NCBI GenBank assembly: GCA_030704615.1
Contig: CM060732.1
Coordinates: 63,302,001-63,366,000, forward strand
DNA length: 64,000 nucleotides
Source of the DNA: Takakia lepidozioides
Lineage: Eukaryota > Plantae > Bryophyta
Direction: 5' to 3'
The translations under genes and the position numbers were made by a program. The notes under the pieces are model-generated. The model did not search any database. It was not told the origin of the DNA and saw nothing but the letters and a program-made list of their open reading frames with translations. Of the stretch, positions 1 through 58,000 are shown piece after piece. Each line of letters opens with the position of its first letter. The first letter of the stretch is position 1.

Positions 1-27
1 ATTTCAAGATGTATCACACAGGCTTGA

Positions 28-1410: not shown

Positions 1411-1591
1411 GGCTCTGCCAAGGCAACAAACGCCGGAGGACTGCCCGAGCTTCAAGGTGGTCATCGTCGGAGACAGTGCCACAGGTACTTCGGGTACTAC
1501 GGGTTCTTTGCTCCCGGCGGTCGTAGCGGAGCTGCAAGCAGCAACGCTGCAGCCCATTCCCGACGACGACGAGGACAAGTTCGAGAGCTAG
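1411..1591 (+). pseudogene. RAN: Ran GTPase remnant: N-terminal segment joined to the acidic C-terminal tail
   Basis: ALPRQQTPEDCPSFKVVIVGDSATG resembles the plant Ran N-terminus ([24 protein letters not shown]). AELQAATLQPIPDDDEDKFES* resembles the Ran C-terminus. The GTPase core between them is absent. Confidence 0.75.
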
Positions 1592-6837: not shown

Positions 6838-7544
6838 CACTGCTTTGGAACTTGCACTATTCCAGGTACAGAGGATAGTAGACATGTTAGAAACTCAGTT
6901 TTCACAGTCCTCCTTTTTCTTGAAATTATGTAGATTAATCTTTGCTCCCTGCCACATAGGAATTTCCTTTTGGAAGTCGGTCAGTTTGCAAGATCAGTCT
7001 AAGGATAAATCTGCTATCAAGCTAACATTGCACTGTGAGATAAACATGAAACATGAACAAACGTTCAATACTTCATATATCTGGATGAAAACTCATTTCA
7101 TTTATTGCATTAATTCAATCTGAATTATCAGAGATCGCGGGATGTTACCTAACATCATAGCCTTGGTGCCAGGTGACACATTACCTCTGGAAGTAAATTG
7201 TATTCCATGTGAGATGAAGTGAAGGAAAAAACAAATAAGGCTCTCAGCTGGTATGGTGGGCCCCTTTCCAAGGTGGACCCTTCTATCCATGACATTAGAT
7301 ACTCATTTTGCCCTCTATGTTTGGCAACATGTGCTTCATGTACGACGAGGTATCTGTCAGGAAAAATGGCAGAGATAGCTTTGAAAGGATATGCTTATAT
7401 CAACATGAACAAGACTACCTGAATAGAATTCACAAATAAACACTACTAAACGGACCAGGAAAGCTATAAACAAAAGGAGAAACAGTCATATAAACAAAAA
7501 GAATAATGATGATTGAGAGCATCCCTCCTTGAACAGAGTAAGGT

Positions 7545-35259: not shown

Positions 35260-38110
35260 CGCATGGATAGCTGAAGGAGCAGGGGTAGAGTGTGGGTTCA
35301 GATTCATCCAAGAAGGCTGGATTTTAAGCTCAAGATTAGCTATGGTTTCATGTGCATCGATAGCTGGAAGAAACCTGCATGGGTAGATGATGAACTGGAA
35401 GCTGCAGCAGCAGCGGCACAGTTGATAAAATCAGGCAGAGTTAATGAAGGCACTTTTTTCAACACATTTCATCCTGTTTTTTTCTCTTATTAGGACCAGC
35501 CCTAATTCCATGTTGAATTCTGCAATGGTGACTTTGACATGCTATTGCCAATGTGACAACATGAAAGTATCCAGATACATGTAACAAAGACGAGGAGAGG
35601 CTGTGGAAAGAATAATTTTTTGACCCCAGTCAATGGTGGGACAACCGAGGCCAAAAGGTGAACGCCTGTTAGATTACAGAGAGTAGCAGATGCAATTCAA
35701 CATAGGAACTAGTGTGATAAGCTGAGTTGGGTGTTTCGTAGAACAAATCTAGGCTATCATTGTCAGCTGCTAGCAGCAAGGCAAGGATGAACGCATGATT
35801 TGTGCAGAGGCATGGATAGTTGAAAGGAACAGGGGTAAAGTGTGGGTACAGAATTATCGAAGAGGAACAGATTTCAAGCAGAAGAATACCTATGATTCCC
35901 TGTGGATCAATAGCTACAAGAAACCTACATGGTAGATGGTCAACTAAAGGCAGCAGCTGCAGCGGCATAGTTGATAAAATCAGGCACCTCATCCATGACC
36001 ACAGCTTCCGGAAGAGGATCAAGAGAGGGACTCCACAATGCTTTGTGAGGCAGGTAGACTGAAAGAGGCTCTACAGACTTTAAACCAATGAGGCATTTTA
36101 GCAGATTCAGGTACGTATGTCTGTTTCTTGTACACTCACATTATCCAAAGTGGATTCACGCCAAGTGTTTTTTCTCCTCAACACTCTTGTTAAGATATAT
36201 GTTAAGTGTGGGAGCATCATGGATGCTCACTATGTGTTCAACGGAAAGCCTCAACGATCTTTAAGCACGTGGAATATAATGTTGGCAGGATTTAATGCTT
36301 TGGAGACCTATGAGCAAATGATGGGAGAAGGGGTAAAGCCCAATTGTGCGTGTTGCAGGGGTAGAGTGTGGGTTCAGATTCATCCAAGAAGGCTGGATTT
36401 TAAGCTCAAGATTAGCTATGGCTTCCTGTGCATCGATAGTTGGAAGAAATCTGCATGCGTAGATGGTGAACTGGAAGCCGCAGCAGCAGCGATAAAATCA
36501 GGCACTGTTAATGAAGGCACTTTTTTCAACACATTTCACCCTGTTTTTTTCTCTTATTAGAACCAGTCCTAACTCCATATTGAATTTTGCAATGGTGACT
36601 TTGGCATGATACTGCCAATGTGACATGATACTTTTCTGACCCCAGTCAACGGTGGGACAATCGAGGCCAAAAAGTTAATGTCTATTAGATTACAGAGAGT
36701 AGCTGATGCAATTCAACATATGAACTAGTGTGATAAGCTGAGTTGGGTATTTCCTAGAACAAATCTAGGCTGTCATTGTCAGCTGCTAACAGCAAGGCAA
36801 GGATGAACGCATGATTTGTGCAGAGGCATGGATAGCTGAAGGAGCAGGGGTAAAGTGTGGGTACAGATTCATCTAAGAGAACCAGACTTCAAGCAGAAGA
36901 ATACATATGATTCCATGTGGATCAATAGCTACAAGAAACCTACATGGTAGATGGTCAATTAAAGGTAGCAGTTGCAGCGGCACAGTTGATAAAATCAAGC
37001 ACCTCAACCATGATCATAGCTTCCGGAAGAGTATCAAGAGAGGGACTCCACAATGCTTTGTGAGGCAGGTAGACCAAGGAGGCATTTTAGCAGATTCAGA
37101 TACGTATGTCAGTCTCTTGTACACTCACAGTATCCAAAGTGGATTCACGCCAAGTGTTTTTCTCCTCAACATTCTTGTCAAGATGTATGTTAAGAGCGGG
37201 GGCATCATGGATGCTCACCAAGTGTTCAACGGAATGCCTCAACGATCTTTAATCACGTGGAATATAATGTTGGCAGGATTTACCAAGCATAGGTGTGGTA
37301 GGAATGCTTTGGAGACCTATGAGCAAACATTGGGGGAAGGGGTGAAGCCCAACCCCATCACGTTTGTGTGCGTTTGCAATTGTGTGCAAGCCTGGCAGCT
37401 CTGGAAAATGGCAAAGAGGTCCATGGTGACATTGTCAAAGCTGGAATTGTACCCAATGTCATTCTGAACTTTGCCCAGTGGATATGTATGCCAAATGTGG
37501 GAGAATTGAGGATACAAAAGGAGTGTTCAACACTATGGCTGAACGAGATGCGGTGTTGTGGAACGTGATGCTTGCAGGGTATGCATAGCAGAGGCGCACC
37601 AGGTGTTCAACGGAATGCGATCTTTAATCATGTGGAATATAATGTTGGCAGGATTTACCAAGCATAGGTGTGGTAGGAATGCTTTGGAGAACTATGAGCA
37701 AATCATGGGAGAATGGGTGAAGCCCAACCACATCACGTTTGTGCGTGTTTGCAGTATATGTGCAAGCCTGGCAACCCTGGAAAAGGGCAAAGAGGTGCAT
37801 GACAATATCGTCAGAGCTGGAATTGTAGTAGATGTGGTTCTCAACAATGCCCTAGTGGACATGTATGCCAAATGTGGGAGCATCGAGGATGCAAAGGGAG
37901 CGTTCGACCATATGGTTGATCGAGATGTGGTGTTCCACGTGATGTTGGTAGGGTATGCACAGTAGGGATGCGGTATGAAGGCTTTGGAGACGTATGAGCA
38001 AATGATGTAAGAAGGGGTGAAGCCCAACCACATCACGTTTGTGTGCGTTTGTAGTGTGTGTGCAAGGTAGCCTTGGAAAAGGGGAAATAGGTGCATGGTT
38101 GCATCGTGAA
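35260..38110 (+). pseudogene. PLS-class pentatricopeptide repeat pseudogene cluster with a ~1.08-kb tandem duplication
   Basis: NTLVKIYVKCGSIMDAHYVFN, TWNIMLAGF, GVKPNHITFV..CASLATLEKGKEVH and NALVDMYAKCGSIEDA, with many stops and frameshifts. 35278-36345 is repeated at 36355-37352. Confidence 0.85.
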
Positions 38111-39916
38111 AGCAAATTTCTTCACAGGTCCCATCCCAGGGATCATTTAATATACTGAGTGGTGCAATCCCAGACAATCTGGCAGACTTGAGTGCCTTGG
38201 GGTTAGCACAAGTAGTCATTTGGGTATGCTTTCTTTGGAGATTGGTACAGGGGAACAGGGATGTCCACAACATTGAGCTTGACAGGTTAGCCATGGCAAC
38301 ATCGTTTCCATCATGTGTCAGGAAGTGTTGTATGCGTATATTCACTCTAGGCCTTCTTATCCCAGTAATTGCAAGTACATTCCAAGATCCGGAACTACAG
38401 TGAGACAGCTGCTAGTATGATCCTTTGGTGAGTAACAAGAAGAGTTCTTCGTCCAAAAGCTAGATCACAGAATCAGTGCACCTTCAAGTGCTAGACTGGG
38501 CTAATGCACAAGGATGAAGCAAAAGATGTTTACCTGAGAGGTATTTTCTATATGTTGGCAACTGGAATGTCAAACTTGTTCTCCTACCCTTAGCCTCATG
38601 CACCTCAGCCTCATGCACTTCCCCATGAGGATCTCCATGCTGGAAAATTCATTGATGTGGAGTAGTTGTTTTTGGGCTACTGGTCGAGGGCCCAAATTCT
38701 GTCTTGTATCCTGCTTTCATTTGTTGGCCCTGCCTTCTCGAGGCAGGACTACGCAAAGGGTTCAGCCGCTTTTGACACATTGCCGCTTTTTCTTTCTTTT
38801 CTTTTTTCTTCGATTTACTTTTCAATTCGAAAAACGTGTAATGTTAATATTCCATCCGCATTTATGATGAATAAAATGCCTTGGATGAATAGTTTTGCGT
38901 ACACGTGAGGTCGTGCTGGGTAGTTATATTGTATGCAGCTCGTTCACATAGCAGGAAAATCTTCTCAGTGATTGAGAAAGAGTGGAAATTCATTTTGGAC
39001 GGGAGTGATTTAGATCTCCAAAGGAGGGAGATCTCCGAGAACATCAGTACCCACAATTCTGGAAGCGTCTGTTGCTGGTTCAAAGGAATTTGCAGGAACA
39101 GTTGTCTGCACAGGCCCTTCCCGAAATAGGAAGGGACGTTGCCCTGCGCGTTGTGTGTTGTTTATCTTCCGATTGTTCGCTCTTCTTCATCTTGATGTTA
39201 GGTATGGGTTTGTGTTTGTTCAGAGGTTGTGTTTTCTTGTTGCCACCAACAGGATGTGCGTATGTTCCTTAAGTAATCGCAATTTGGATTCCAGTGCATG
39301 AGAACAAGCAAGTGAAAAAGCTTGGGAGGTTGCAGTAAACTATATTTGTCAAATTATTAGAAGCATGATTGCAACGGCCAGAGGTGGTGCCTCCTGGCAC
39401 AGTTCAAGGGAAGGAGCTCGGAGTCAGTCGATCCACGAACCCGCACAGCGTTTTGCTGATTTTGATGGTGTGTTTTCTTTCCTCGTCTCTGTGCTTCGTG
39501 ACTGAGAATTTCGCTTATTTTAAGGGTTATGGAAAGCAGCTATGGACGTGGGACCTTGTTCACGTCTATGTGAGAATAATAGAGCCATATCAAACCCCAT
39601 GTGGCGGGGTGAAAGCCTACGTTGATTCATAGACACTTGCCCGTCATGGCACTTGCAGAGGATGAGTCCGTCATCTCCAGAAATGTCTGAAGCAGTGTCT
39701 GATATCAAATGATGTACTCCAGTTTTGTAGGGTACAAATGTTGTGCGGATGGACCCTTTGCACAGGTGCTGAAGCCTTAAGGTTAATTACAAATGTTTAG
39801 TGCCAATTCACTATAGCCACTGATTCCTGGTATCTATTTGACATCACTATTCATAGTGTGAGCTTTTGCCACCATTTGTCCATCCCTCCATAACATTCAT
39901 TTCACATTGCTTGCTA

Positions 39917-41349
39917 TGTCATGGTTTTAGTCATGGTTATCTAGAATTACCTACTTCTAGTTAACTAGGACATTTTGGATATTTATATTTATATTTTGTG
40001 TGTTGGAACTTCATTGGGTCTCACATACCAAGTGAGGTGTCGAGCCTCACTTGGGACATGGAGATAGGCTTTCCCCTTCTGGGGATGGAGGAGGCTCATC
40101 TTCTTGTAGTTGAGCCTCTATGAGCTTCTCTTACCTCCATGGCTCTAGGTATTGAGAGGGAGTGTGTTGAGGGCTTTGTAGGATGGATTCTCTTAGCAAG
40201 GGTGCCCTTGACTTGACTTAGTTTATGTGATAGAGTGGATTTCACTTGGAAGGACTAGGACTTGTTCTTACACTACTACATTTAGGGGGGGTTAGCGACG
40301 CCAGGACCCCGGGCACGCCGGACGCGCCGACCCCCTGCGACTGCAGCGTCGCACAGACGCCCAGCTCGTTGGGGCGTCGTAACGCCGGCGCTCAGACGAC
40401 GTTGTGGCATCTTGCGATGCCATGTCGTCGCCGGAAAGGGGCCTGACCCCATTCCCCTGCCAACGCACTGGGGGGGGTTGCGACGCCCCCGGATGTTGCG
40501 ACACCGGGGAATCGCAACGAGACGTCGCAATGCCGCAGCCTAGCGACGCTTTTGCGACGGCCGGGCGCTCCTGCGACGGCGGGGAATCGCAATACCCAAG
40601 ACCAAAAAAAAAAAAAAAAAAAAAAAAAAACCCTGGTTTTTTTTTTTTTTTTTTTTTTTTTTCGCGATTCCCCGCCGTCGCAAAAGCGTCGCTGGGGCTG
40701 CAGCGATGCGATTCCCCAGCGTCTTGGGGGCGTCGTGAAAAATTGATTTTGGGAGTAGATTGTAGAGCATAATGGGCTTGGCATCTTCAGACTATAGCCA
40801 TTGTCCAACAATAAGTTGCAATGCAGCTTTACAAAACTTAGGCCATTGATAGATATTTGTTCTTGAAGAATTCTGGGGACAAGTCTAGGTGCAAGTTCCA
40901 GCTGTGAGAGCTCCTGTAGAGTACGCATAATCTGCAACACAATGATAGGATTGCGATAGTGGTAGGAGCTAACTCTTGATATGTATATATATATATTTGG
41001 ACTGCTTTTGTGATACATAGATGTATTGTAGATTTGTTGGTTAGTGTGCAGTGTCTTAGAAATGTTATAATGTGGAGGTCCTAGATTCAAATATGCATTG
41101 CCTAATATATGTAGAACAATGCATGAATTGTCATTGGACAAAACCGGAGTCAATGGTCAACGTCGAGTAAATGGTCAACTAGTTTTTGAAATTCAAATTC
41201 AAATTCAAATTCAAATTTTCCCACCTAAATTCAGATATACCCCCCTACTGTGATGTCTGGGGGTCGCATGTACGACCCTCGGACTCAGGAATCGCAAACC
41301 CCCCGGGACCACCCGGCCGCGGCGCCAGCGCGATGACGTCCAGGCATCG

Positions 41350-41380
<31 letters not shown>

Positions 41381-41624
41381 AACCAACGTCTTTTTCTGCG
41401 ACGTTTTTTCTTCGACGTCACTATTTAGCGACGTTCCGGGAGCGACGTCGCAAATGCCCCCGGCGCGCCCCGGGCGCCGTAGAGTATTTTCGTCGCTAAT
41501 CGCGGCGGTTGGAGGTCGCTGGGGCATTGCTAAACCCCCCCAATCGTAGTAGTGTTAGTGTGGTTGCTTCATGCTTTGAGAGTTTTCATTGTTTTCCACT
41601 TCTTTCATTTCTCATCTCTTATCA
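39917..41624 (+). repeat. Terminal repeat A1 (421 bp after removing the CACTA insertion and one TSD copy)
   Basis: 39917-40270 plus 41558-41624 aligns without gaps to 51761-52181, with about 21 mismatches by eye, mostly transitions. Confidence 0.9.
40271..41554. mobile_element. Non-autonomous CACTA (En/Spm) element inserted in the 5' terminal repeat
   Basis: Termini CACTACTAC...GTAGTAGTG, 3-bp TSD TTA, and CpG-rich GCGACG/CGTCGC subterminal repeats. The empty site is visible in A2 (..GTTCTTAGTGTG..). Confidence 0.92.
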
Positions 41625-42924
41625 CTACAAGAAGATCACCTTATGCTTGTGAATGCGGAGTGTAAGGATTAGTTTTGCACTTGTATGTTAAAGAGGTTGA
41701 GCTAGGAGAATTCAGCTCTTGTATCACAAGGCTTGCAAGGGGTTGCAAGGAAAAATGCTCGAGTGTTGCATGCACCAAGGAGTTGGAGAGCTTGAGAAGA
41801 AAGCTCGAGTCACAAGATTTTGCAAGGATTGCAAGGATGAAGTCTTGTGTGGGTAGAAGCATGGATTCTAGGGTTTGAGAATCCTTTGTATGCATTATGG
41901 AGTCAATGGTGTGTGCCATGGCTTGTGGAGAGTGACTAAAGGCTTGTTAGTGCTCATTTCACTATCAAGCTAGGGTTAAGCAAGTTCAAAGTGTGGATGT
42001 TGTGGAAGAGAAGCCAAGGAGCTACATAGGCTTGGGCTTGAAGACAACAAGGGCAAGCACTTGGAGAGCACTAAGAAGATCAAGAGGTTTTGAAAGGGAG
42101 CATGTGAAGAAATCTTCCAATCATGGTGGTGTGGAGCCAAGCTTAGGACGCCATTGGAAGGGCTTGGAGAACATATGGTGGGAAATCCTTGAGGGGAAAT
42201 CATTATTCAATGTATGCATAGCTTCACCCTAACTATGTAATGTGACAAGAGGGGGAGGCAATACTTGGCTATTCATGCTCTTGGTAGTGCGAGCTTTGTG
42301 GTGGATAGTTGACCAAGCAAGTGGTGCATATATGGAGCATGCTCTCTTGAGTTTGTAAGTTCAAGTTTGAGAAGGGGAGCTCTTGAACTAGCAAGAGGTG
42401 AAGGCCTTGAGATCCATTTGTGTGTGAAGTGGAGAGGTGTTGATTCATGTTATGATGAAGGAGAGCAACACATAGGCCAAGAGGTCATGGAACATGCATT
42501 CAAATGACCAAGGGGAGCACATGGATGATGGATTGGTGCAAGACCCCAAATGAGGCATATGGCGTGAGAGTGGGATCCAAGGCGGATTGCTTGGGAGCAT
42601 TATTGTAAGTGACAAGCATTGCTCCTACACATTGAGATAATTTGTGTTGATTTGGAACAATTGTCAAGTGATGAGGAGACAAATGCATGATTGTTCGGCA
42701 ATGGAGATATGGTAGTTTGCAATCAAATCCCAAGGACTAGAAGGAGGATTGATTTGGTGGACAATGACTTGCAAGTTGAGTTGGACCACTCTTGGTTGCA
42801 CGGGGTGGAAGAGAGCAAGAAGATGCCTCTTATGTCCACCTAGAGACCATATTTTTGCTTGAGTAGAAGCATAGAAGACTTGCATTCTAGCTCTTCATTA
42901 CAAACCCTAGTAGTGTATGCTTAG

Positions 42925-43314
42925 ACTATACCTCTGTTAGTATACCAAACATGAGCTTGTCCCTTTGACTATACCTCTGTTGAGGTATCACCATATGTAA
43001 ACCCTAATGTGAGACTATACCTATGTTAGTATACCAAACAGGAGTTTTTCCATTTTACTATACCTCTATTGAGGTATCACAATATGTGAACCCTAATCAG
43101 CTCAAACTATACCTCTGTTAGTATACCAAACAGGAGCTTGTCCCTTTTACTATATCTCTGTTGAGGTATCACCATATGTGGACCCTAATCAGCTCAGACT
43201 ATACCTCTGTTAGTATACCAAATAGAACCCTCATTTTCAGACTATACCTCTGTAAAGGTATCATCAACATAAGGGACCATAGCAACCTCAGACTATACCT
43301 CTGTTAAGGTATCA
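42925..43314. repeat. Nine-unit hairpin tandem array (core ACTATACCTCTGTT) with alternating A/B units
   Basis: Cores start at 42925, 42968, 43014, 43057, 43106, 43149, 43198, 43241 and 43292. Confidence 0.9.
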
Positions 43315-44132
43315 ACATTGAAAGGACTTAGTGAAATTTAAGCGCCTTTGGAGGATTGTTTGGAAGATATTTGAGGGCCCTTGGAGGAGTGTTTGGAGGA
43401 TCTTTGGGGTCATTGGAGGATTGTTTGGAGGATCTTTGGGGTCCTTGGAGGAGTATTGGAGGACCTTTCGAAGAGCTTTGGTGAACAATGTTGAAGAGCT
43501 CTTGAAGGATTGATTAAAGGAGATACTTGCCACGGTCATACAAGCGAGTGGATAGAGATAGGAGGGAGAGTGGTGGGATGAGAGCATTCTGGGGTTAGGA
43601 ATTGCTTTAGTTTCTCTTCTCCATAGTCTTTCACCATCTTTGTAGGCCAAAACCTTTCCGTAGGTGGAGGCAAGAGTCAGTTCGGGTTTGGGCTGGGGTG
43701 TCCTTGCAGGAGCGACACTGTGGAGTGTTTTTGGTGTGGGGGAGTTGCTGTCTTGATTTTCTTGTGTTTGGACCCTCTCCACACCTGCATGCTTGACTGT
43801 GCGCCATGTTAGCTTTGTGTGGGCACTTGTTTTCATAGGAGGTTGGTCCGGATTTGATCACCGGCCAATCCTAGAGTATGCTGTCGGTGGTGAGGCTGGA
43901 GTAATGACCAGCAAGACCACCAGTGTTTCTTCTATGGTGAGGCTAGGTTGATGACCAACAGACCATAAGAGTACTTGCGGTGGATGCAGGTGCAGGTATA
44001 GGTCTATGTTAGAAACCTATTATTCGTGCTTGAACCAGTAGCCGCAACAGGTTCTCTACCCGGTTACCTTGTGGAAAGTGGGGATTAGAGACAGGTTGAC
44101 AACCGGTTGGGTTATGAGTTTTCATCACGGAG

Positions 44133-45652
44133 GTGCCACCAGTTGCTGAGGGGAGTGTCGATACGAGCACCAGCGATACTAGTGGGTACACAAGACAAGG
44201 TGTGCGGTTTAGGCCACCTTCACTTTCAGTGTCTTCTGATGAAGGTTTAGACTCGGAATCAGGAGGATTCTCGCCGAGGGTGCAAGTCATTTCCGTGCCA
44301 TTGTTGTGGAACACGATGGAGGAGATGTATGGAGCTACCAAGGGGCCACGTAGGTACTCTGGAGCTGTGGGCACCATCGAGCTTGATGACTTCATACAAG
44401 AGTTTGACAGTTGGTGTGATTTGCAGCAAATGCGCAATCCACAACTGTTTACGCCCTTTATGGCATGGAAGGGCCTATTCCAGCACCTTGAGGGGCCGCC
44501 CATGGATGATTACCATGAATTTAGGCAGGGACATGCGGTGGAGATTGAGGAGTGGCGAGAGTATTGGTCACCTAACTATGTCTCCATCACTAGAGGCACA
44601 AGGGCAGCGGCGACACCAGCAGCTACACAAACATCTCCAACTACAAGCAGTAGTAGTGGGACAAGTGGTACATGAGCTGGGAAATCCACTCAAGCTCATG
44701 CTGGAGCACCAGCACCCGTGCCTACCTTTCACCCAGTTGTGGAGTTCTTCGAGGAGTTGAGGAGAAACTACCAAGGGATAAAGACAGAGAAGTTGCGGAG
44801 CTTGCAAGAGTTCCAACGAAGGTCTACTGAGAGTTTGAGGGAGGCTTACACTCGCATGAGGCGCTTGATAAACGTAACCCAAGGGGTTACAGACACTCAC
44901 GCAGTCCAGTTCTGATATGGGATCCTGGACAAAGAGTTGAGGAAAAGGGTGCGGGATACAACTCTCCTACAAGTGGACCAACCCACCTTAGCAAATGTGT
45001 TTTGCTGGCAGAACGGGTAGAGCTCAATATGGTGGAAGAGCGAGTGATTATGGTGGGGTTTGGCAAGGAGACACAACGAAGTGGGGCTCCTAGCCAACAA
45101 CAACCACTATCCCAACGTGTTCAAGGCAACAAGAGGGCTCAGGTGAAGCCGAGGGAAGGACACAGAGGATCTCAGATGCAGAGGTCTCTTCCTTCATTCT
45201 CAGGCCAACAACAGTCGGATGTGACTTGTTGGGATCGTGGAGGACCCCATATCAAGAAGGATTGCCCGGAGAGAGGCAAAGGGCCGGCACAGGCACAGCC
45301 TACACAACTACAGTGTGGGCATTATGGAAAGTATAGGCATGAGGAGGCCCATTGTTATGCCTTGCATCCTGAGCTACGGCCAGGCCAGTTCCAAGGGAAC
45401 AATGGTGGCCGAGGACGAGGCAATGTAGTCCAGAGAGGTAGAGGAGGCAGAGGACGGGGTGGAGGTCATAACCAAAACCAAGGAGCACAGGGTCAGGGTC
45501 AAGGTCATGACCAAGGCATGGTGGATAGACTTGCCCAGCTAGAGCAACGTCTTGCTGTCATGGCCACTACTCATGTTGCGCCAGCTCCAAGGCTTGAGGT
45601 TCAAGCCCCACCTGCACAACCTCCTATGCCTAAGGAAGATCAGATTGGTTAG
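44133..45652 (+). pseudogene. gag (capsid-like region plus two degenerate CCHC zinc knuckles), disrupted
   Basis: LDDFIQEFDSWC, FQRRSTESLREAYTRMRRL, CWDRGGPHIKKDC and CGHYGKYRHEEAHC, followed by an RGG-rich tail. Frameshifts and a TGA at 44913. Confidence 0.8.
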
Positions 45653-46239
45653 GGCTTCATGTGTGGAACCGCACTTGCAGGGCCATTACATGTATTGGAC
45701 TCTGCTGCTGCTGTCACTCAAGCAGCAACGCGTGCTCCTGAGCCAAGAGGAGCGGATGTGGATTTTGATCCACAAAGGGGGGAAAACAAGTCGTCAGACA
45801 AGGCTTCCACAGTCCTTTACATTGGCTGAGACAGTGCCACCTACGCCATCAATGGCACCCGCTCGCCCAAGTGTGTCAGAGGTAGAGCCACAAGTGTCAT
45901 TGGGGAGAGTTGGTGTGGCTCGGGAAATGCCAGTGGGTGGTGCTGCAAAGCAAGGTGCAGCCAATACATTGTTGGGGGCGGCTACGGCGGTTTGCCAAGC
46001 TCCATTATTTTTTGCAATGACCATTACAATGTCGGGGATTCGGCCAACTGTTGTGTTCAAACTAGCAGCTAGACTCTGTGAGAGTGGTGATGCATCGACA
46101 CTATCTGCGGAGATAGCAAATAAGGTGCAGTCTATGGATGCTTTGGATTCGAGGGTGAAATCAGCCACAGCTGCGCCATGGCAAGCGGCAGCTGCAAGGT
46201 TGCAGGAGTTGCCATCTAGGCCAGCCATTGAGCGCAGCA

Positions 46240-46610
46240 TGGTGACTCCTGGGGTAGTCCTGGTGGACAATCGGGATGGAGTGTTTCAATTGGGTGGCCC
46301 AACTAGGAGGTGGTATAGGCATTGTCCTTTCCAAATTCAAACATCTTTGGGTGGTTCAGAGAAGGCACGAGGGATTACACGCCATGAGCTCTTCATTTGA
46401 TTGCAGCCAGATCATCCTACAGATGGCTCTGTCATGAGAGCTAAAGCCATTGTTACGGACGCGATATCTTATGATGTGCTTGTCAGTGGGGCTGTGTTAT
46501 ACCCGATGGGCTGTACTTTGGACTTTTGGGAAGAAATGACATCCTACATGCCGGAATGGCAGTCAGGGGATGGTCGACGTGCACTGCTCCCAGTGCGGTT
46601 TATTGGGAAT
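46240..46610 (+). pseudogene. Aspartic protease-like region of pol, partial
   Basis: AIVTDAISYDVLVSGAVLYPMGCTLDFW resembles the C-terminal half of a retropepsin, and the position after gag fits. No clear DT/SG active site is seen. Confidence 0.45.
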
Positions 46611-46949
46611 GTAGTGGTGGATCATAGGAACATGATGCCCATATTGGTTGCATTCTCAGGTATGGTTGCTTGGGGTGGTGAGCTCTTGGAGGGCAATAAT
46701 CATGCAGATGATAGGCCACCACCTGATGAGGACAAACAATTGGCATACAAGGCTGATTTGCTTCCTCATGTATTTGTTCATATTCCATTGTGGGGTACAT
46801 TTGGGAATTTGCATCGAGTAGCAGGCGAATATGTGCACCAAGCATGGCAAGAGCCCTATCCATTGGTGAGTGAGGGGAGTTCAGTGACATCACCCGGACC
46901 TCCTCAGTTAGCTCCTTTGGACACAATGCCCATTACCTGGCAACCACTT

Positions 46950-47895
46950 GACTCAGGGATTTGTTTGCTAGACATGTTTGGAGGCATGAGCACTGGGCTT
47001 GCAGGAGTGTTGCAAGCAGGGATTAAAGTACGCAAGTACTTGTATGTGGAGAAGGATGAGATAGCTTGGCGTATTTTTATGCGTCACATTGCCTTGCTCA
47101 CACACCGATATCCTGAGTTGTTGCCTCTCTCAGCAATTCAAGGGTATCAAAAGGCCTTGCCAGCAGACATTACCTTGCTGGGTGGGATGATTTAGACCGG
47201 CATGGTGCCATTGACTTGGTGATAGCTGGATGGCCTTGCCAAGGATACTCTCCCGCAGATCATTGGAATGGCTTGCATGATGCACGATCGCATTTGTTTT
47301 GGGAGATGTTGGGAGTGTTGTGTGACTTGCAGATGAGGCAAGTGCAACCTCTAGCCTATATCTTGGAGAATGTTCATCTTATGGGGGACTCTCGGGCCAG
47401 GGTTATGGCCAGTGTGCATCAGGTGCGGTCTTGGATTGGATCGGCAGTGCTATTGGATGCAGCAGCGGTGGGATCACGAGCGCATCGACCTCGATTGTGG
47501 TGGACCAATCTTGCACCACCAGAGCTGCTCAAGAGAGCATACGATTCTATTCAACGGCCACCCAATCTCACAGTTGAGAGCATTTTGGACCAAGGGAGGC
47601 AACCACAGAGGGTGCGACATGATGACCGTCCACCTCTAGTAGTGGTAAATCGAGCGGGGCAGCCACGTGCAGCCTTGCCTACGCTCATGAGCTTTCCCTC
47701 GTCTCATGCTTTTCAAGACAATGGTCCTGGGTTGATTTGGGACTATGTGCTACAGCAATTGGTGGAGCCCAATGCGGATGAGCGAGAGCGGGCAATGTGA
47801 TTTGACACGGGCACTACAGCTGTGCCAGCTCTGTTAGAGGCATCACGACGCCAGGTGTTGGGTCAGGCAATGGATCTCAATTGCTTGACATGGGT
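46950..47895 (+). pseudogene. C5-cytosine DNA methyltransferase domain (DNMT3/DRM-like signatures) within retrotransposon pol
   Basis: Motif I LLDMFGGMSTG, II YVEKD, III ADI, IV DLVIAGWPCQG, VI YILENV, VIII AHRPRLWWTNL, IX ERERAM*FDTGTT, X RRQVLGQAM. One frameshift (~47190) and one stop (47798). Confidence 0.92.
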
Positions 47896-48479
47896 CATTG
47901 GCTTGTGCATGGCTGAGCAACGGAGATTGCAAGCATTGGTAGCTACTTCTGCACTTCCATTGGATATTGCACCATCTCTGCCAACCGGGACGGTGGAGGC
48001 AGTGAGTAGGGGCGAGCATAGGATCATGGGGTGCAAACACCCATGGCAGATGTGGGATGAGATGCTCAAAGAGAGAATCATTGGATCTCTCAAGCAGCAG
48101 TATGAGGAGTGGGGAGAGCCATATATTGAGGATCAGTTGGAGGCCAAGGTGGCCAATGTTTTGGAAGAGGTTGAGAATGTTTCTTCCCCAGAGGATGTTC
48201 TCAAGGTGGCTATGGTGGAGCAAGTGGAGGCCACGGTCAAGGTGGGCGAATAATGCCCAAGAGGTTGCTATCTAGCAACCAAAGGATGCGTCTCCTACTT
48301 CCAAGCCTGGTGTACCCAAGGTTGTAGTCATTGAGGACAACTGGGAACCAGATGTTGGACCTATAGTCACCAGAGGAGAGAGGCGGAGGATCTAGCGATT
48401 TCTAAGGGCTTATAGAAATTGCTTTGCCTTCGGTTTGAAGGATTTGGGGAGTTTGAAGGGCCAGTAGATTCGTATTGAT

Positions 48480-49842
48480 TTGGCAAGTGACACGCCAATT
48501 TTTCAAAGGCCCTACAGGTATAATGATATGGAGAAATCTTTGATCCAATCACGGACTACGGAGTTGTTCAAAGCTGGATTGGTGGAGTTGTCAAGCGGGG
48601 AGTATGCCTCGGCAACGGTGATGCCAACTAAGAAGGATATCTATGGCAATTGGACAGAAAGGAGGATGTGTGGGGACTACCGTCCTGTGAACCGTCAGAC
48701 TAAGTCCGATAGATATGCCATGCCAACTCCAGAGGAGATCTTTGATACCATTGGGCATGCAAAGGTGTTTAGCACATTGGACTTGCGATCCGATTACCAC
48801 CAGTTGCCAATCAAAGAGGCTGACAAGCAAAAGACGGCATTCTGGGGGATTGACCAACATGGGGAGGATTGTTTGTAGCAATGGCGGTTCCTACCGTTTG
48901 GGTTGAAGAATGCTCCTGCAGAGTTTCAGAGGGTCATGGATAGGATTCTTGCGGGGCTAGACTTTTCCCGGTGCTACATTGATGACATCATCATCTTTAG
49001 TGCTACGATTGAGGAGCACGAGAGATACATTCAGATGGTGTTTGAGCGCTTGAGAGCGCATGGGTTGAAATTGCACCTGGGAAGTGCAAGTTCTTCCACA
49101 ACCAAATTGAGTATCTGGGCCACATGATATACCCTGGAGGTTTGGGTGTTCAAAAGACGAAGGTGGAGGCCATTGCACGCATTCCACGCCCCATCGATGT
49201 TAGCAGTGTTTGTGCTTTCATGGGGTTGGCAAACTACTATCAACGGTTTGTCAAGGGATTTAGCAGCATTGCAAAGGCTCTTATCAACTGACCAAGGTCG
49301 GTCAGGAGTGGCAGTGGGATGAGGAGCAGGAGGAAGCCTTTGAGGACCTCAAGGCTCGATTGACTTCTGCGCCTATTCTGAGTCGGCCTATTCGGGGGCG
49401 GTCTTTCCAACTACATACAGATTGGAGTATGTTAGGGATTGGAGCAGTGCTCACACAGATGGATGATGAGGGAAGAGAGTTCATAGTGGCATATGCTAGC
49501 CACTCGAACAATGATGCCGAGGCAAAGTATAGTTCCTATGAAGGGGAGTGTCTAGCTGCAGTATGGGCAGTGGCACATTTTAGATGCTACCTCTATGACA
49601 ATCTCTTCACCCTTGTCACGGATCACCAACCATTGAAGTGGTTGATGGAGTCAGACAAGCTTACAGGGAAGCTTGCACGGTGGGCACTTATGCTTCAAGA
49701 GTACGACTTCCAGGTGGTGCATCGAACTGGAATAGTGAACCGGGATGCGGATGGATTGAGTCGCAATCCATGCACAAGTGAGCTTGATGATACAGGAGCT
49801 CGTTGGCATAGTGAGATGGACAAAGAGATGGTGCCAGGATGA
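48480..49842 (+). pseudogene. Reverse transcriptase and RNase H (Ty3/Gypsy type), disrupted
   Basis: RMCGDYRPVN, FSTLDLRSDYHQL, PFGLKNAPAEFQ and YIDDIII for RT. FQLHTDWS, YSSYEGECLA, VTDHQPL and DADGLSR for RNase H. Confidence 0.95.
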
Positions 49843-50149
49843 CACGCATCTGCCTTTTTATGCATTCTAGCAATGGGAACTCAAGCTGGTCCATCCCATG
49901 TGATTGGTCATAGAGATAGTATGCATGACGATCCAGAGATCAGTGAGGAGCTTGGTGGTGCTAAAGATGTACATGAAGATGCAGCAGTGTTGGCCTACCT
50001 TCGTACTAAAGAGATAGCAGCCAGTGTGACTGCTAAGGAGAGAGATCGGATCCTACAACGAGCCAAGAGGTTCAAGTGGGAGGGGACTCACCTACTCCGA
50101 GTATGGGAGGATGGACGAGTGAGGATTGTGCCTCATCCAACACAACGAG

Positions 50150-51200
50150 CGCGATTGGTACGCCATGCCCATGAGGAGTTGGGACATTTTGGGGTGCGGC
50201 GCACTCATAGTTTGCTGCAAGGACAGTATTGGTGGCAGGGCATGCACACGGATGTGCAATAGTTAGTGGCAAGATGCATGGTGTGTGATAGAGTGCGGGC
50301 TTCTTTTAATGCCCCTATTCCACAATTGCATCCTTTACCCATTATGGGTTTGGGCTATCGTTGGAGTCTTGACTTCGCAAGCTCATTGCCACTAACTATT
50401 CGCCATAACAAGTATGTGCTGGTGATGGTGGAACATTTCTCCAAATGGATTGAACTGGTGGAATTGCCTGACAAGGCAAGTGAGGGGGCTGCGTATGCAT
50501 TCTTAGATCGAGTGCTTAGCCAATTTGGTGCTCCAGCCGCGGTACTCATGGACTAGGGGAGAGAGTTCTTGGGGGAGTTTCAGGCTTTGTGTGAGCAAGC
50601 CTTGATAGATCACCGCACTACTTCTCGGGATCATCCCGAGGCTGATGGCTTGGCCGATAGGGTTGTGCAAACAGTCAAGCGAGGCTTGCGCAAGTATGGC
50701 TTGAAGAAGGGACACTTGGGAGATCTGGACCTTCGGCTACCTTGGTTGGCCATGGGTTACAGGTTTAGCAAGCAAGCATCACTTGCCTCATTCTCGCCTT
50801 ATTTCTTTCTCTTTGGCCGAGAGCCAGATTTGTCTGCATCTATTTGCAGGGAGACTGAAGTAGTCCTCAACCTTGATAATCCGGATGTGTGGACACAAGC
50901 ATGTGCCTAACGGGCAGAGTTGTTCAAGAGAGTCATGCCTATGGCTTTTGAAAACCTTGCTATTGCCCAACACCGAGACACATTGAGGTACATCACTATA
51001 CATAGAGGGGATATCGGCAAGGTGTTCGGCGTTTCCATCCTGGGGACTATGTGTATCTGCAGCAGACAGCGCCTACGACCTTGGATGTCACAACAGGTCG
51101 TGTGATTCTAAGGGTCCGGGAGGTGTTACCTTCAGGAGTGTTGATTCTGGAGGGTCAAGATGATATGATATGGAATGACCATGTGCGCAATTGTGCGCCA
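50150..51200 (+). pseudogene. DDE integrase (HHCC zinc domain plus rve core), disrupted
   Basis: HEELGHFG..CMVC, WSLDF, VEHFSKW, VLMD*GREF, HPEADGLADR and FSPYFFLFGREP. Confidence 0.92.
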
Positions 51201-51266
51201 TGTCACCTTCCACATGTGGATGAGAGGATAGATCCCAACCTTGCAGTGGTACCTGCAGGGTTGCGT

Positions 51267-51401
51267 TGCATGCTATGTGGGCATGCTGGTGGTGCCGTGA
51301 CCATGTTGGTGTGTGACAAATGCTCAAGGGGGTGGCACATGGGATGCTTGATACCGCCACTTGAGGAGGTTCCTAGTGGAGAATGGTTGTGTCCACGATG
51401 C
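51267..51401 (+). other. PHD finger (C4HC3) at the pol C-terminus
   Basis: CMLC...LVCDKCSRGWHMGCLIPPLEEVPSGEWLCPRC, followed by a stop at 51414-51416. Confidence 0.93.
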
Positions 51402-51672
51402 CTTAGACAGAGGTAGTGGGGCATGTCAGTGGCGAGATTGACAAGTGATCCAAGGTCTAGCTAACGGGAGTTCGATGCCATGGACACCCAATTGAAGCCA
51501 TGGATTGCAGGAAGGCGAGTAACGATGGGGCTACTTTTGCACCCGGCCTCTTGATCTATTGACTTCAGATAGTGGGACTTGAGCGATTGATGAGCAAGCG
51601 ATGATCTTATTGGGATGGATACTTGTCAGCTATCTGGTGTTAGATGGACCTAATCACCGGCTAGGGGGGCGA

Positions 51673-52267
51673 TTGTGGTATAGCTTTCTAGGATTGTGTG
51701 CTTAGATTGTGGTGTGGACAACAATGTATGTTGTGGCACGATGCTTAGGTGCACGACAACTGTGATGGTTTTAGTCGTGGTTATCTAGAATTACCTACTT
51801 CTAGTTAACTAGGACATTTTAGATATTTATATTTATATTTTGTGTGTTGGGACTTCATTGGGTCTCACATGCCAAGTGAGGTGTCGAGCCTCACTTGGGA
51901 CATGGAGATAGGTTTTCCCCTTGTGAGGATGGAGGAGGCTCATCTTCTTGTAGTTGAGCCTCCATGAGCTTCTCTCACCTCCATAGCTCTAGGTATTGAG
52001 AGGGAGTGTGTTGAGGGCTTTGTAGGGTGGATTCCCTTAGCAAGGGTGCCCTTGGCTTGACTTAGTTTATATGATAGAATGGATTTCACTTGGAAAGACT
52101 AGGGCTTGTTCTTAGTGTGATTGCTTCATGCTTTGAGAGTTTTCATTGTCTTCCACTTCTCTCATTTCTCATCTCTTATCATTGTGGTATAGCTTTCTAG
52201 GATTGTGTGCTTAGATTGTGTGGTGGACAGCGATGTATGTTGTGGCACGATGCTTAGGTGCACGACA
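51673..52267 (+). repeat. 3' terminal repeat block: B1 (51673-51758), AC, A2 (51761-52181), B2 (52182-52267)
   Basis: The 86-bp B unit (TTGTGGTATAGC...GTGCACGACA) occurs twice around A2 and is absent from the 5' end. Confidence 0.9.
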
Positions 52268-53402
52268 GCTATATACATTCAGATTCAGATTCGGAATCGA
52301 TGAAACTGGCAGGGCCCAACCCTAAGGAAAAAAAAGAGGATTGGCAGACGGATGGGGATCCTGGAAGAACAGTACACCTGGAGACAGATGAGCTTACTCA
52401 GCTGCTAGATGACGGCAATCTGTATGGGGAACTAAGGCATGAAGATGCTGGGGATGATCAAGATTACCAGCAAACACATAGTTGTTGGAAGTTTACCACG
52501 AGGATGGACACCAATGTGATGTTGAGGAAGAAAGAGCTTCAGAATCAGGCAGGGTAGATCTTCCTCCTAGAGGCAATCCTCACTGCCCTAGAGGTAAAAT
52601 ACTCCGAATTACTCTCGATTCTTTGTGTATGAAACCCTCTCTATTCTATAAATTACATGACTGGCATCAAGTGTGTATCATGAAGAGAGACTGTCTCCTC
52701 AATGGCGCATCTTCTGTGTCAATACCACTGATGCTTTTGTTTGTGAGCTTGTACAACGAGTATTTAATTGTTGTACTTATACTGTTACCAACTAGCTGTC
52801 ATGGATGCTCACCACAAACATTTTCCTAGTAATGAATTTTAGCTTCCTATGCACCTGCCTAAGTTGCTGATTCACCACAAGTTGTTCAAGTGTACATAGT
52901 GGTTCCTTCTATTGTTCTTGTGAACATAAACCTAGTTTATTTCCCTCATGTTCCAAAACTCCATGGCTTCATTGGGAGAGGAATCTGGCAGGTATTGAGG
53001 ATTTTCAACCAGATACTGCGGATGAAGATGTTGACACTGGGGATGGCAAGGATGAACCGATGGAGAATGAATTACCCGTTGTAGATTCAGATGCAACCAC
53101 GTGGCATCATATGAGGGGTTTGTTAAATGTATTTAACAGTCAGAACCACGACTATGCTTATAAGAACTCGTTGCCAGGTGTTTTATGGTCGATATGACAC
53201 GTGTCAATGCATGATTGAAGGTTGTTTAGTGATATTAAAGTGATATTGCTTACTACCTATAGTAGAACCCTAGTCATGCACACGTTTCTGTAATCTATAC
53301 TTCTATTGCTATAGTGATTCTACCTACTGCAGCTTACTACCTATACTAAAACAAATCAATGCTTCATTCACAGGCAAGAATCACAGAAAAGAACAAAGTG
53401 AG

Positions 53403-53799: not shown

Positions 53800-56700
53800 T
53801 TGGCATGGATAGCTGAAGGAACAGGGGTGGACTAGTGTGGGTTCAGATTCGTCCGACAGAGCTGGATTTGAGGCACAAAGCTACGTAATATGTCGATTCG
53901 CTGCCCTGCCCCCGTTAATTAAACCGATGAGACATTTTAGCATAAAGATGAAAAAGCGTGGAAGCTTGTGGGCAGGTGCACGTTCACCTTATCCAAACTG
54001 GATTTAAGCCAAACATTTTTTTATGCAATGCCTGCCTCGTCAACATGTATGTTAAGTGCGGGAGCATCGCTGAATACTCACCAAATGCGGGAGCTCTCTG
54101 CTGGTGGCTGACTGGCTACTGCGGCGGCGGCAGCCTGCTTGCTCTAGCTCGTGAGCGACTTGCCAGCCACCCCCCCCCCCCCCCCCCCAAATAGTGAGCA
54201 CACCACTGACTACCCTCTCCCTGTCCTTGCCTCTCCCTCTCCCTGTCGCACCCTCCCTCTCCCTTTCTCTTGGCAGGAATAGCTGAAGGAGCAGGGATGG
54301 AATGTGGGTTCAGATTCATGCAAGAGGGTTTCATTTCAAGCACAAAACTACCTATGGTTCTTTGCCCTGCCCCCTATAAACCAAGGAAACAATTCAGCAG
54401 ATTCAGATACTTAGCTTTGTCTCTTGCATGAGTAGCTTGGAATCTGGTGGGCAAGTTAAGTGAAGGAGCATTGTTGCTGCGGCTTCCAGTTGACCATCTA
54501 CCCATGCAGGTTTCTTGTAGCTATCCTTCCATAGGGAATGATAGGTAATCTGGAGCTTGAAATCCGGCCCTCTTGGATGAATCTGGACCCACACTCTATG
54601 CCTGTTCCTTCAGCTATCCATGCCTCTGCACAAATCATGCATACATCTTGTCTTGTTGCTAGCAGCTAGCAATGACAGCCTAGAACTCTTCCAGCAAACA
54701 CCGCAACCATACTTATCACACGAGTTCCTATGCTGACTGGCGTCTGCTTCCAAGAGGCATTCACCTTTTTGCCTCGATTGTTCTACCATTGACTTGGGTC
54801 GGAAACGTGTTCATTTTAGAGCTTCTCCTTGTCTCTGTTATCTATTTTTCGATACTTTCCTATTGCCACATTGGTAGTAACATGTCAAAATCACTCCAAA
54901 ACCACCATAGATCCACCAACAAGCTAACTTGCATAATTCAATATGAAAATTTAGGGACGACTCTGATAACAGGGAAAACATGCTGAAATGTGTTGAAGAA
55001 GGTGCCTTTGTTAGCGGTGCCTGGTTCTATCAATTGTGCTGTTGCCGCTACTGTTTCCAGTTGACCATGGAGGTTTCTTGTAGCTATTGATCCACGGGGA
55101 ATCAGAAGTAATCTTGTGTTTGAAATCCGGCCCTCTTGGATGAATTTGGACCCACACTCTATCCCTGGTCCTTCAGCTATCCCTGCATGTGTACAAATCA
55201 GGCATACATCCTTGCCTTGGTGCTAGCAGCTGACACTGACGGTGTGGAGTTCTTCCAGAAAACACCCCAACCCTACTTACCACACTAGTTCCAAATCTGA
55301 ATGCACCTGCTTCTCTCTGTAATCCAATAGGCATTCACCTTTTCTGGAGCTGCCAGGCTTGCACATGCATTGCAAATACAAACAAACGTAATGTGGTTGG
55401 GCTTCACCCCATCCTGCATCTTTTGCTCATATGTCTCCAAAGCCTCCATCCTGCAACCCTGCTGTGCATGTCTTACGACCATTGCGTGCCACAACACCAC
55501 ATCACATTCAGCCATAATGTCAAACACCCCCTTTTCATATTCAATACTCCCACATTTGGCATACATATCCAGCAAGGCAGTGTTCCGAATGACATTTGGT
55601 ACAATTCCAGCTTTGACAATGTGACCATGGACCTCTTTGCCATTTTCCGGGGCTGTCAGGCTTGCACATGCATTGCGAACGCCAACAAAGGTGATCTGGT
55701 TGGGCTTCGCCCCTTCCTGCATCATTTGCTCATAGGTCTCCAAAGCCTCCATCCCACGACCTTGCTGTGCATATCCTACGATCATCGCGCTTCACGACAC
55801 CACATCACGTTCAGCCATTTTGTCAAACACTGCATTTGCATCTTCAATGCACCCAAATTTGGCAACATGTCCACCAGGGCAGTGTTCAGAATGACATCTG
55901 GTACAATTCAAGCTTTGACGATGTGAGCATGGACCTCTTTACCCTTTTCCAGGGCTGCCAGGCTCGCACACGCATTGCAAACACAAATGTCAAATGTGAT
56001 GCGGTCGGGCTTCACCCCTTCCAACATCATTTGCTCATAGGTCTCCAAAGCATTCCTACCACACCCATGCTTGGTAAATCCTCCCAACATTATATTCCAC
56101 GTGATCAAAGATCGTTGAGGGATTCTGTTGAACACTTGGTGAGCATAGATGGACACTAGGGGAATGTTCAGAATGACATCTGGTACAATTCCAGCTTTGA
56201 TAATGTCAACCATGAACCTCTTTGACCATTCCCAGGGCTGCTAGGCTTGCATATGCATATTATAAACACAAATGAACATGACCTGGTCTGGCTTCATCCC
56301 TTCCCACATCATTTGCTCTTAGGTTTCCAAAGCCTTAATCCCATACGCATGCTGCACATACCTTACAATCATGGCACTCCAAAACACCACATCTCGTTCA
56401 GCCATAATGTCGAACTCTCCCTTCGCATTAGGCTTGCTGCACCCACATTTGGCATACTGCATGTCCACCAGGTCAATGTTCAGAATGACATCTGGTACAA
56501 ATCCAGCTTTGATGATGTCACCATGGACCTCTTTCCCTCCAGAGCTCCCAAGCTTGCACACGCATTGCAAACACAAACAAACGTGATGTGGTTGGGCTTC
56601 ACCCCTTTGCGCGCAGTTGCTCATAGGTCTCCAAAGCATTCCTACCACACCCATGCTTGGTAACTCCTGCCAACATTATATTCCACGTGATCAAAGATCG

Positions 56701-57190
56701 TTGAGGCATTCTGTTGAACACTTGGTGAGCATCCATGATGCTCCCGCACTTGACATACATGGAGACAAGGGTGTTGAGTAGAAAAACATTTGGCGTGCAT
56801 CCACTTTGGATAATGTGAGTGAGCACCTGCTTTCCAGCGTCCAGACCTTCCATCTTGATGCACTTAAGCAAGGGACAGACATACGTACCTGAATCTGCTG
56901 AAATGCCTCATTGGCTCCCTCTCTTGATCCTCTTTCAGAAGTTGTGGTCATGGTTGCGGTGCCTGGTTTTATGAACTATGTCGCTGCAGCTGCAGCCTTT
57001 AGTTGGCCATCTACCCATGCAGGTTTCTTGTAGCTATTGATCCACAGGGAATCACATCTGGTACAATTCCAGCTTTGGCGATGCAACCATGCACCTCTTC
57101 GCCCTTTTCCAGGGCTGCCAGGCTTGCACACGTACTGCAAACGCACACAAACCTGTGGTCGGGCTTCACCCTTCCCCAATCATTTGCTCG
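53800..57190 (-). pseudogene. PLS-class PPR pseudogene cluster, mostly inverted relative to the 35-38 kb cluster
   Basis: ORFs 55285-55785, 55908-56213 and 56599-56871 encode PPR motifs nearly identical to those at 36-38 kb. Short + strand copies lie at 53800-54360. Confidence 0.85.
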
Positions 57191-58000
57191 TAGGCAGGAA
57201 TTTCATGTATGCAGGGGGGAGCATATTCAAGTGTAGCAGGTGGGTTTCAGGCCCCAAGTAGTGCTCTCCATTCGCCCCTTGTTGTGCCATTATCTCCATC
57301 CAATTCTCCAAGGGCATCTCCTATACAAGTCCTAAGTGGTCTATCAACTCCTATGTCACATACTGGTAGTGCCACAGGAGTGAAATTTACGTTGCAGAAC
57401 TCCAAAGTGGGTGAGGATGACCATCATCCATCCTGAACACAAATCATTGAAATCCATGAGTCAGTTTCAAAGGTCCAGCCTGTGCCCGTCGATGTCAAGG
57501 TCCAAGCAATACCTGATGTACAAGTACATTTAGAGGTCGAACAGTTGGAGAAGTTAGCGTGTTCTGCACTTATTCACAAGAACAATGCTAAAGAGACACA
57601 TAGCCCATATGATCTTGATATACCCCGAGGTGTTATCCCAAGACGTCCACCCACCCATGAGCCGCCAAGTAACACACTTCGAATTTCGGCAGATTTTTTA
57701 CGGGCCCAAAACTGTAAAATAATCGAAAGTAGTATAAGAAGAGAAGGTTTTCGAAGATATCCGCGCTCATGCTGGAAGCACTCCGCTCATAAGTACCAGT
57801 GTCCGCTCATGACTTGGAGCCCAAGCTCAAGGACCGCCAGGCCAGGTCATAGAAAAACTGAATTATGGGCAATAACGGCACTGAAATTACCCCAGAGGAA
57901 GGGACGCAAGCGGAATTAGGATCCGGGTTTGCAGACTTCGAAAACGCAATGGTGACCTATAACCGTGGAAGTACTATTGCAGAAGTGCAGGATGGTTGGG

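Follow-up and report, generated by a model that had tools for sequence, protein, structure and literature searches.

The 64,000-nt stretch of Takakia lepidozioides DNA analysed here (the window) contains a decayed Ty3/Gypsy element of 12.35 kb in which a DNMT3-type C5 cytosine methyltransferase (DNMT) sits between protease (PR) and reverse transcriptase (RT). Comparison of the reading frames indicates that the DNMT is the last part of a first open reading frame (ORF1, Gag-PR-DNMT) and that a stop codon divides it from a second frame for RT, RNase H (RH), integrase (INT) and a PHD finger. We judge it rather probable that in this family the stop would be read through for RT-integrase, and that the enzyme, placed at the end of the Gag-PR frame, would be packaged in Gag-like amounts and methylate the element's own cDNA before insertion.

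Structure and decay of the element

The element spans positions 39917–52267, starts with TG, ends with CA and is bordered on each side by GCTA (39913–39916 and 52268–52271), a 4-bp target site duplication; its features lie on the forward strand, except for one nested insertion to which no strand was assigned. A Pfam scan of 15 ORFs of the window placed Gag (weak, below the cut-off), RVT_1, RT_RNaseH, Integrase_H2C2, rve and PHD around the DNMT in Gypsy order, and the domain set RT-RH-INT with a DDE integrase, seen in this order and in the 4-bp duplication, assigns the element to Gypsy. ORF1 (44316–48272) aligns in four collinear segments (32–65% identity) with P0349, a Marchantia protein of 1,281 aa that is itself unbroken, and is interrupted by several stops and frameshifts. 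It includes the DNMT (46950–47914) and a remnant of the aspartic protease (46200–46580), from which a 31-residue stretch with the catalytic motif is missing in the alignment to P0349. ORF2 (48276–51416), likewise broken by stops and frameshifts, has an unbroken counterpart of 1,047 aa in the related element L081. At the C-terminus of its integrase it encodes a PHD finger (51267–51401; PF00628, E 5.4e-11), to which the fingers of CHD4, KDM5B and KDM5A are the nearest solved structures. With frameshifts and stops across the whole coding region and the protease motif gone, the window copy is dead.

The terminal repeats of the window copy differ by a K2P distance of 0.05–0.06. The coding region is depleted in CpG (observed/expected 0.45) and CHG (0.81), which fits self-methylation and host methylation alike and does not separate the two. 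The leader (41637–43330) is longer than those of the sister loci, is without match to them and contains tandem repeats of about 90 bp (42919–43306); it possibly holds another insertion. Parts of the element are covered by contigs from two sequencing runs, which we take for RNA by guess and do not count as evidence here.

In the surrounding DNA, decayed clusters of PPR-gene repeats flank the element in opposite orientations (35200–38100 and 54200–57200); these PPR fragments and the nearest relatives of the element suggest a land plant, probably a bryophyte, as host. An apparent multi-exon kinesin-like gene, labelled by eye, with an exon at 30248–30733 on the minus strand, contains some 14 short repeats (11960–31100), each with (GAAAT)n at its head, together with LINE RT fragments at 24115–26142 and 12280–12756 (minus strand). 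A 405-codon open frame with Cys/His clusters at 61933–63150 (minus strand) is transposase-like by eye.

The methyltransferase domain is of the DNMT3 type

The first-pass annotation, made from the letters of the window, had placed C5-methyltransferase motifs in canonical order between protease and RT. Every motif that it named was located: DMFGGM (46971–46988), GWPCQG (47228–47245), ILENV (47360–47374), AHRPRLWWTNL (47480–47512), ERERAM (47780–47797) and RRQVLGQAMD (47846–47875). The canonical order, from motif I to motif X, also agrees with its statement that the domain is not circularly permuted as in DRM. Within the window the DNMT carries a frameshift at about 47150–47195 and a stop at 47798–47800, and the ORF at 47117–47797 matches PF00145 with an E value of 1.9e-10 (41 bits versus a cut-off of 22). 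The ESM Atlas added nothing beyond PF00145.

The likeness to DNMT3, noted earlier from the wording of the motifs, is corroborated by a profile search and by the predicted fold of a relative, both of which put DNMT3A/B nearest. When a profile of 18 relatives was compared with PDB sequences, DNMT3A came first (E 1.4e-22), followed by DNMT3B/C; DRM-type enzymes (4.5e-10 and less), HaeIII/HhaI (1e-6 to 5e-6) and DNMT2 matched more weakly, and DNMT1 and CMT are missing from the 57 PDB matches of this profile. When the structure of relative P0001 was modelled (mean pLDDT 70) and its fold compared with solved ones, DNMT3A/B/C occupied all listed ranks, with a best E value of 1.9e-15. By these comparisons the domain is a DNMT3-type enzyme, unrearranged and intronless, which lies in unbroken ORFs in L081 and P0349. 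A C-terminal DUF3444 is described as a mark of cellular plant DNMT3 (PMC6453930); it was absent from Pfam scans of P0349 and P0225 (E 0.01) and of the window ORFs (E 0.1).

The methyltransferase occupies the same position in hundreds of relatives

Protein searches returned 76, 53 and 525 proteins, and a further one 1,225 cluster representatives. Among the matches listed (120 of the 525 proteins and 150 of the representatives), the DNMT stands ahead of RT or ends Gag-PR in Marchantia, Calypogeia, Sphagnum and Closterium, shorter DNMT pieces come from M. paleacea and Riccia, three Sphagnum species are named, and the name Klebsormidium is absent. A search for intact copies, suggested in the first-pass annotation, found five unbroken Gag-PR-DNMT proteins in Marchantia polymorpha (Mp4g09160, Mp5g06330, Mp5g06860, MpVg00370 and MpVg00540; 1,278–1,281 aa, annotated as hypothetical and 95–98% identical in a comparison of the proteins alone) and one unbroken element, L081, with a DNMT of about 50% identity. 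Among 42 long Gag/PR-DNMT proteins PCQ is found in 41 and ENV in all 42, and 36 end 69–168 aa past the domain.

The sister loci used below are the best 80 of 115 metagenome loci (65 distinct insertions); all of them were fetched by a DNMT match, so that sisters devoid of the domain lie outside the set. Most belong to one family, whose linker is like that of the Sphagnum fallax protein P0065. One of 31 pattern matches in genome contigs is a relative, namely L081, and none of 120 pattern matches in viral contigs is. The contig with L081 (positions 1–9285) is assigned to a cyanobacterial genome bin, in which it is probably a contaminant of plant or algal origin, and P0037 is similarly labelled bacterial. 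The apparent circularity of L081, a 127-nt end overlap, was rejected as evidence for a circle since assemblers collapse repeats in this way. In L031, the first element ends in a B repeat, right behind which a second related RNase H-integrase-PHD fragment (14739–16598) starts.

A second domain order, RT-RH-DNMT-INT-PHD, occurs in 50 of 157 proteins of at least 900 aa, with the chlorophytes Haematococcus and Cymbomonas among the members named. These 50 polyproteins include P0044, P0046, P0053, P0236 and P0242, and several of the 50 have a final segment that by eye resembles an adenine/N4-cytosine methyltransferase, with no Pfam match in P0044. In a quick, unrooted tree (midpoint only) of 65 element domains hand-picked from 387 proteins and the 80 loci, the DNMT splits by domain position (29 versus 36 rows, SH-aLRT 95), and the window stands beside Calypogeia, Marchantia and Sphagnum-like loci.

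In one DNA run of the host species, which may be the source of the window itself, 40,316 contigs fall on the element. Their summed depth, which is not a copy number, is about 100,000–170,000 over the DNMT, similar to the protease region and below the 190,000–540,000 over RT and integrase. The stop that interrupts the DNMT of the window is a position at which almost all of this depth differs, so that this break is not common to the host copies; the stop at 48273 is outside the 40 of 1,073 window-versus-host differences listed, which is uninformative on the host copies.

These data bear on the origin of the domain, which the first-pass annotation regarded as a feature of a family and which a one-off capture would have contradicted. 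A host DNMT3 fragment taken up once by the window copy and now decaying neutrally would be in keeping with a copy that is dead and has lost its protease motif. The presence of the DNMT at the same position in hundreds of relatives refutes this. The missing DUF3444 in P0349 and P0225 and the host-species contig depth, which is about equal over DNMT and protease region, also speak against it, and we give a single capture virtually no weight.

Constraint on the methyltransferase

Of the 80 sister loci, 73 retain the catalytic Cys, three have it altered and four do not cover it, and the Glu of ENV is likewise retained in 73, so that a loss of the catalytic residues in all copies, raised earlier as a possible outcome, is not what is seen. 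The two Arg of motif VIII are kept in 50 and 63 of the 80 loci; where they are lost, the codon mostly encodes His, Cys or Gln or is a stop, the outcomes that CpG decay would be expected to give. Between the window and 71 loci the DNMT has a dN of 0.33 and a dS of about 2.6 (14 saturated), and between the window and 40 loci RT has a dN of 0.19 and a dS of 2.1. The DNMT Ka/Ks is about 0.13 between families, at a dS near saturation, and 0.61 among the mostly dead copies of the main sister family, in which RT has a dN/dS of 0.38 and RNase H of 0.43. The rates across copies suggest purifying selection between families, and a weaker constraint than on RT within the main sister family. As far as these substitution rates tell, the DNMT is constrained, but less so than RT, in mostly dead copies, and decay explains part of the gap.

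A conserved stop codon closes the Gag-PR-DNMT frame

The first-pass annotation had the motifs follow the pol frame barring decay. The DNMT of the sister copies does lie in the RT frame, but a conserved stop stands between the two, so that the domain closes the Gag-PR frame instead. Both the end of the DNMT and the start of RT are present in 51 loci, and their spacing is divisible by three in 35 of these. With one in-frame locus that has a long insertion left out, the linker contains a stop in all 34 in-frame loci (30 distinct), the codon being identical in 32. At the stop position, 45 of 53 loci have TAG or TAA with CAA as the next codon (the other eight are shifted, deleted or different), and TAA is used in 15 loci. 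L081 has a single stop between its two long ORFs, after which 1,047 codons stay open for RT-RH-INT-PHD. The length of the linker is a multiple of three in each of three families, with 420, 462 and 540 nt.

The sequence UAG CAR YYA is the type I readthrough signal of tobamoviruses (PMC3542737). TAG CAA CCA in the window (48273–48281) and in L026, as well as TAG CAA TCA in L081, fit it, whereas the main sister family mostly has CAA CCC, and the strict CAR YYA follows the stop in three of 53 loci. We consider it likely that the stop is read through to yield RT-integrase; a literature search that reached few subscription journals returned no paper on readthrough in retrotransposons like that proposed here, nor on a stop after a DNMT. 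The stop is not universal: in P0102, P0142, P0230, P0384, P0385, P0072 and P0172 a single record includes both DNMT and RT, without the bryophyte-type gap, and a separate subclade of relatives has one ORF for the two.

Six bryophyte gene models (P0005, P0014, P0015, P0026, P0040 and P0065) bridge the linker from the DNMT to the pol domains and skip part of it, as if the stop were bypassed by splicing or by a separate RNA, a difference that would affect the expression step alone. In Ogre elements, an intron separates protease from RT. However, the skipped stretches differ among the models, as is typical of gene predictors meeting a stop, and splicing sits poorly with linkers that are multiples of three in three families, with CAA after the stop in most loci and with the full CAR YYA context that the window shares with L026 and L081. 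We therefore regard a bypass as very doubtful and readthrough as the likely route.

Terminal repeats, priming site and insertion ends

The repeats of the element are arranged as A1, coding region, B1, a 2-nt spacer, A2 and B2, that is, A-coding-B-A-B. A1 (39917–41624, TG...CA) is split by a nested non-coding CACTA-like insertion (40271–41554) with imperfect inverted ends, a TTA duplication and long A/T runs, and shares 95% identity with A2 (51761–52181) over 354 + 70 nt (K2P about 0.05). B1 (51673–51758, with a GACA end) is 94% identical over 90 nt to B2 (52182–52267), the CA of which is the right end of the element. The spacer between B1 and A2 (51759–51760) marks the B/A junction, which in L003, L011, L061 and L081 is the palindrome GACAGCTGTC. 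Five sister loci (L011, L036, L053, L061 and L074) have a complete B-A-B, and L036, L053 and L061 have A1 too. The 4-bp duplication is exact in five of six testable loci and holds at three of four positions in the sixth (L003 is without a right end and the left end of L053 was not located); it borders long and short forms alike, exactly at the palindrome halves.

The 12 nt behind A1 (41625–41636) are the perfect complement of a segment of A (40098–40109), while 2,000 random starts reach at most 9 nt. This pairing and the sister loci mark the 12 nt as a primer-binding site, likely of the self-priming type, and the segment of A is likely the RNA 5′ end and self-primer. The pairing covaries: the window, the main sister family and L081 each maintain it with a sequence of their own. 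It extends over 12 nt in L081 as in the window and over 9–16 nt in 11 of 27 sister rows, and is shorter or missing in the remaining 16. That a second CACTA insertion begins at 41625 was rejected, as the sister loci show the primer site there. On the other side of the coding region, a polypurine-tract-like site (51663–51672) adjoins the 5′ end of B1 and is found in the same place before B in sister loci and L081.

With a polypurine tract before B1 and a primer site after A1, reverse transcription should give an LTR that consists of B+A. The insertions nevertheless start and stop at the B/A junction. Such ends, at a palindrome inside the LTR, suggest the integration of an end-joined circle, and the simplest account suggested by these sequences would be a single cut, at the palindrome, in a 2-LTR circle. 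The mirror form A-B-A-coding-B, which is also expected from a circle with two equal palindromes, was seen at none of 20 5′ ends. The short form A-coding-B is represented by 10 rows versus six of the long form (the 10 include a duplicate and a row cut off by the contig edge) and could stem from one-LTR circles, from cutting of linear DNA or from B-B recombination.

The missing second permutation, and short forms that are at least as frequent as long ones, would also suit A-B-A-B ends made independently of a circle, either by template jumps, as proposed for split-repeat tyrosine-recombinase elements, or by rearrangement after insertion. The duplication at the palindrome halves in long and short forms, the tract and primer site that set the LTR as B+A, and the A2/B2 junctions, which look end-joined, are variable and contain remnants of primer site or tract (L044 and L045 retain primer-site bases and L036 has extra bases), speak against such an origin, and we hold it to be unlikely. 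The repeat A2 itself (51761–52181) has on both strands no CHG and four CG cytosines versus about 29 and 37 expected, and the sister repeats are less depleted; the depletion would protect the promoter against methylation, be it by the element or by the host, or may reflect decay.

A possible life cycle and its meaning

In the scheme favoured here, ribosomes would yield mainly Gag-PR-DNMT and only occasionally read on past the stop to make RT and integrase. As the DNMT ends ORF1 before the stop, the enzyme is expected at Gag level, with many copies per particle, and this number points to the cDNA as its substrate. Gag-PR-DNMT would likely fill the particle, within which the protease would free the DNMT. 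Self-primed reverse transcription would then produce linear DNA with an LTR of B+A, the two cDNA ends would be joined to a circle, and the DDE integrase would cut the palindrome between B and A and insert the circle, with the PHD finger likely choosing the chromatin. The DNMT would likely methylate the cDNA, which would be methylated already on arrival. More tentatively, and with a low probability in our estimation, one may propose a Gypsy lineage from green algae to liverworts and mosses that self-primes, joins its ends and is inserted as a circle via the palindrome, and in which the Gag-level DNMT methylates the cDNA first and maybe decides which palindrome is cut.

The DNMT could instead be retained for other work, either methylation or binding of the target site after integration, together with the PHD-integrase, or service as a DNA/RNA-binding module of little catalysis. 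A constraint below that on RT would agree with this, and so would a PHD finger nearest to fingers of the CHD4/KDM5 type, which read unmethylated H3K4. The Klebsormidium relative, moreover, showed no methylation in yeast, where human DNMT3B failed too and which its authors call inconclusive (PMC5890265). Against these points, the catalytic Cys, Glu and Arg are retained across families that are about 50% identical, and co-expression with Gag, not with integrase, is more in line with an action within the particle than with one single event at the target. Other work of this kind appears quite unlikely to us, and methylation of the cDNA in the particle is the reading that we retain.

Why retrotransposons bear an enzyme that their hosts use for silencing has been an open question since 2018, when the sole Gypsy example was algal and inactive in yeast. 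The unbroken Gag-PR-DNMT frames of Marchantia make this question testable in a land plant that serves as a model and for which methylation mutants exist. The insertion ends concern a second matter, as 2-LTR circles are usually viewed as dead ends; contrary to that view, they suggest that circles are cut at an internal site and inserted by a DDE integrase. Elements with such permuted ends would escape LTR finders or be mis-bounded by them, and counts of bryophyte DNMT3 genes may include element copies of this kind.

Comparison with known methyltransferase-bearing elements

According to the first-pass annotation the concept was known, but no characterised land-plant family was. This holds: the precedent is KnitGypsy-Dnmt3 of Klebsormidium nitens, a Gypsy element with a Dnmt3-like domain described in 2018 (de Mendoza et al., PMC5890265), and a literature search, with most subscription journals outside its reach, returned neither a report from a land plant nor a paper on the priming or integration route or the split repeats of land-plant Gypsy-DNMT3 elements. 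A Marchantia methylation preprint discusses, in the part available, the cellular DNMT3b alone.

KnitGypsy-Dnmt3 resembles the window element in its intronless, unrearranged Dnmt3-like domain within a Gypsy polyprotein and in its A-coding-B-A-B repeats, and its DNMT is under purifying selection with a Ka/Ks under 0.2 (PMC5890265). It differs in being described from one alga as a lineage-specific acquisition with DNMT and RT in a single ORF, whereas the relatives of the window element are from land plants and have the DNMT before a conserved stop. The PHD finger, the self-priming site and the palindromic junction of the window family are unmentioned in the available text on KnitGypsy-Dnmt3, and the words 'Marchantia' and 'PHD' do not occur in the main text of that article (PMC5890265). 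Because the single-ORF feature fails, the window element is not filed as KnitGypsy-Dnmt3, a separation made by description and not on a shared tree; it is nevertheless likely that it works like KnitGypsy-Dnmt3 and shares its origin.

SymbioDIRS-Dnmt3 and SymbioLINE-Dnmt of Symbiodinium are likewise retrotransposons with a DNMT, with split repeats in the DIRS element, the enzyme of which performs de novo CG methylation in yeast (PMC5890265). Unlike the window element, which has a DDE integrase and a 4-bp duplication, they use a tyrosine recombinase or are LINEs. The EpiLTRs of Euglena and Cymbomonas share with it the combination of an LTR element, a DNMT and a chromatin-reading domain, but they contain DAM, DNMT and a chromodomain, have a DNMT that is sister to DNMT4, and are called distinct from streptophyte Gypsy-DNMT3 by their authors (bioRxiv 10.64898/2026.05.21.726589). 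The main text of that preprint is without the words 'land plant', 'Marchantia' and 'bryophyte'. The 15 window ORFs gave no Pfam match to DAM or chromodomain and contain a PHD finger instead. Gypsy elements of the Tf1/Sushi and Tcn1 groups also have a primer site with no tRNA complement, are predicted to self-prime and occur in mosses; they are chromoviruses, the window ORFs have no chromodomain match, and the article on them, as far as its text was available, has no occurrence of 'methyltransferase' or 'PHD' (PMC6317226). Taken together, the window element is of a kind already described, the range of which is wider, and the build odder, than reported before.
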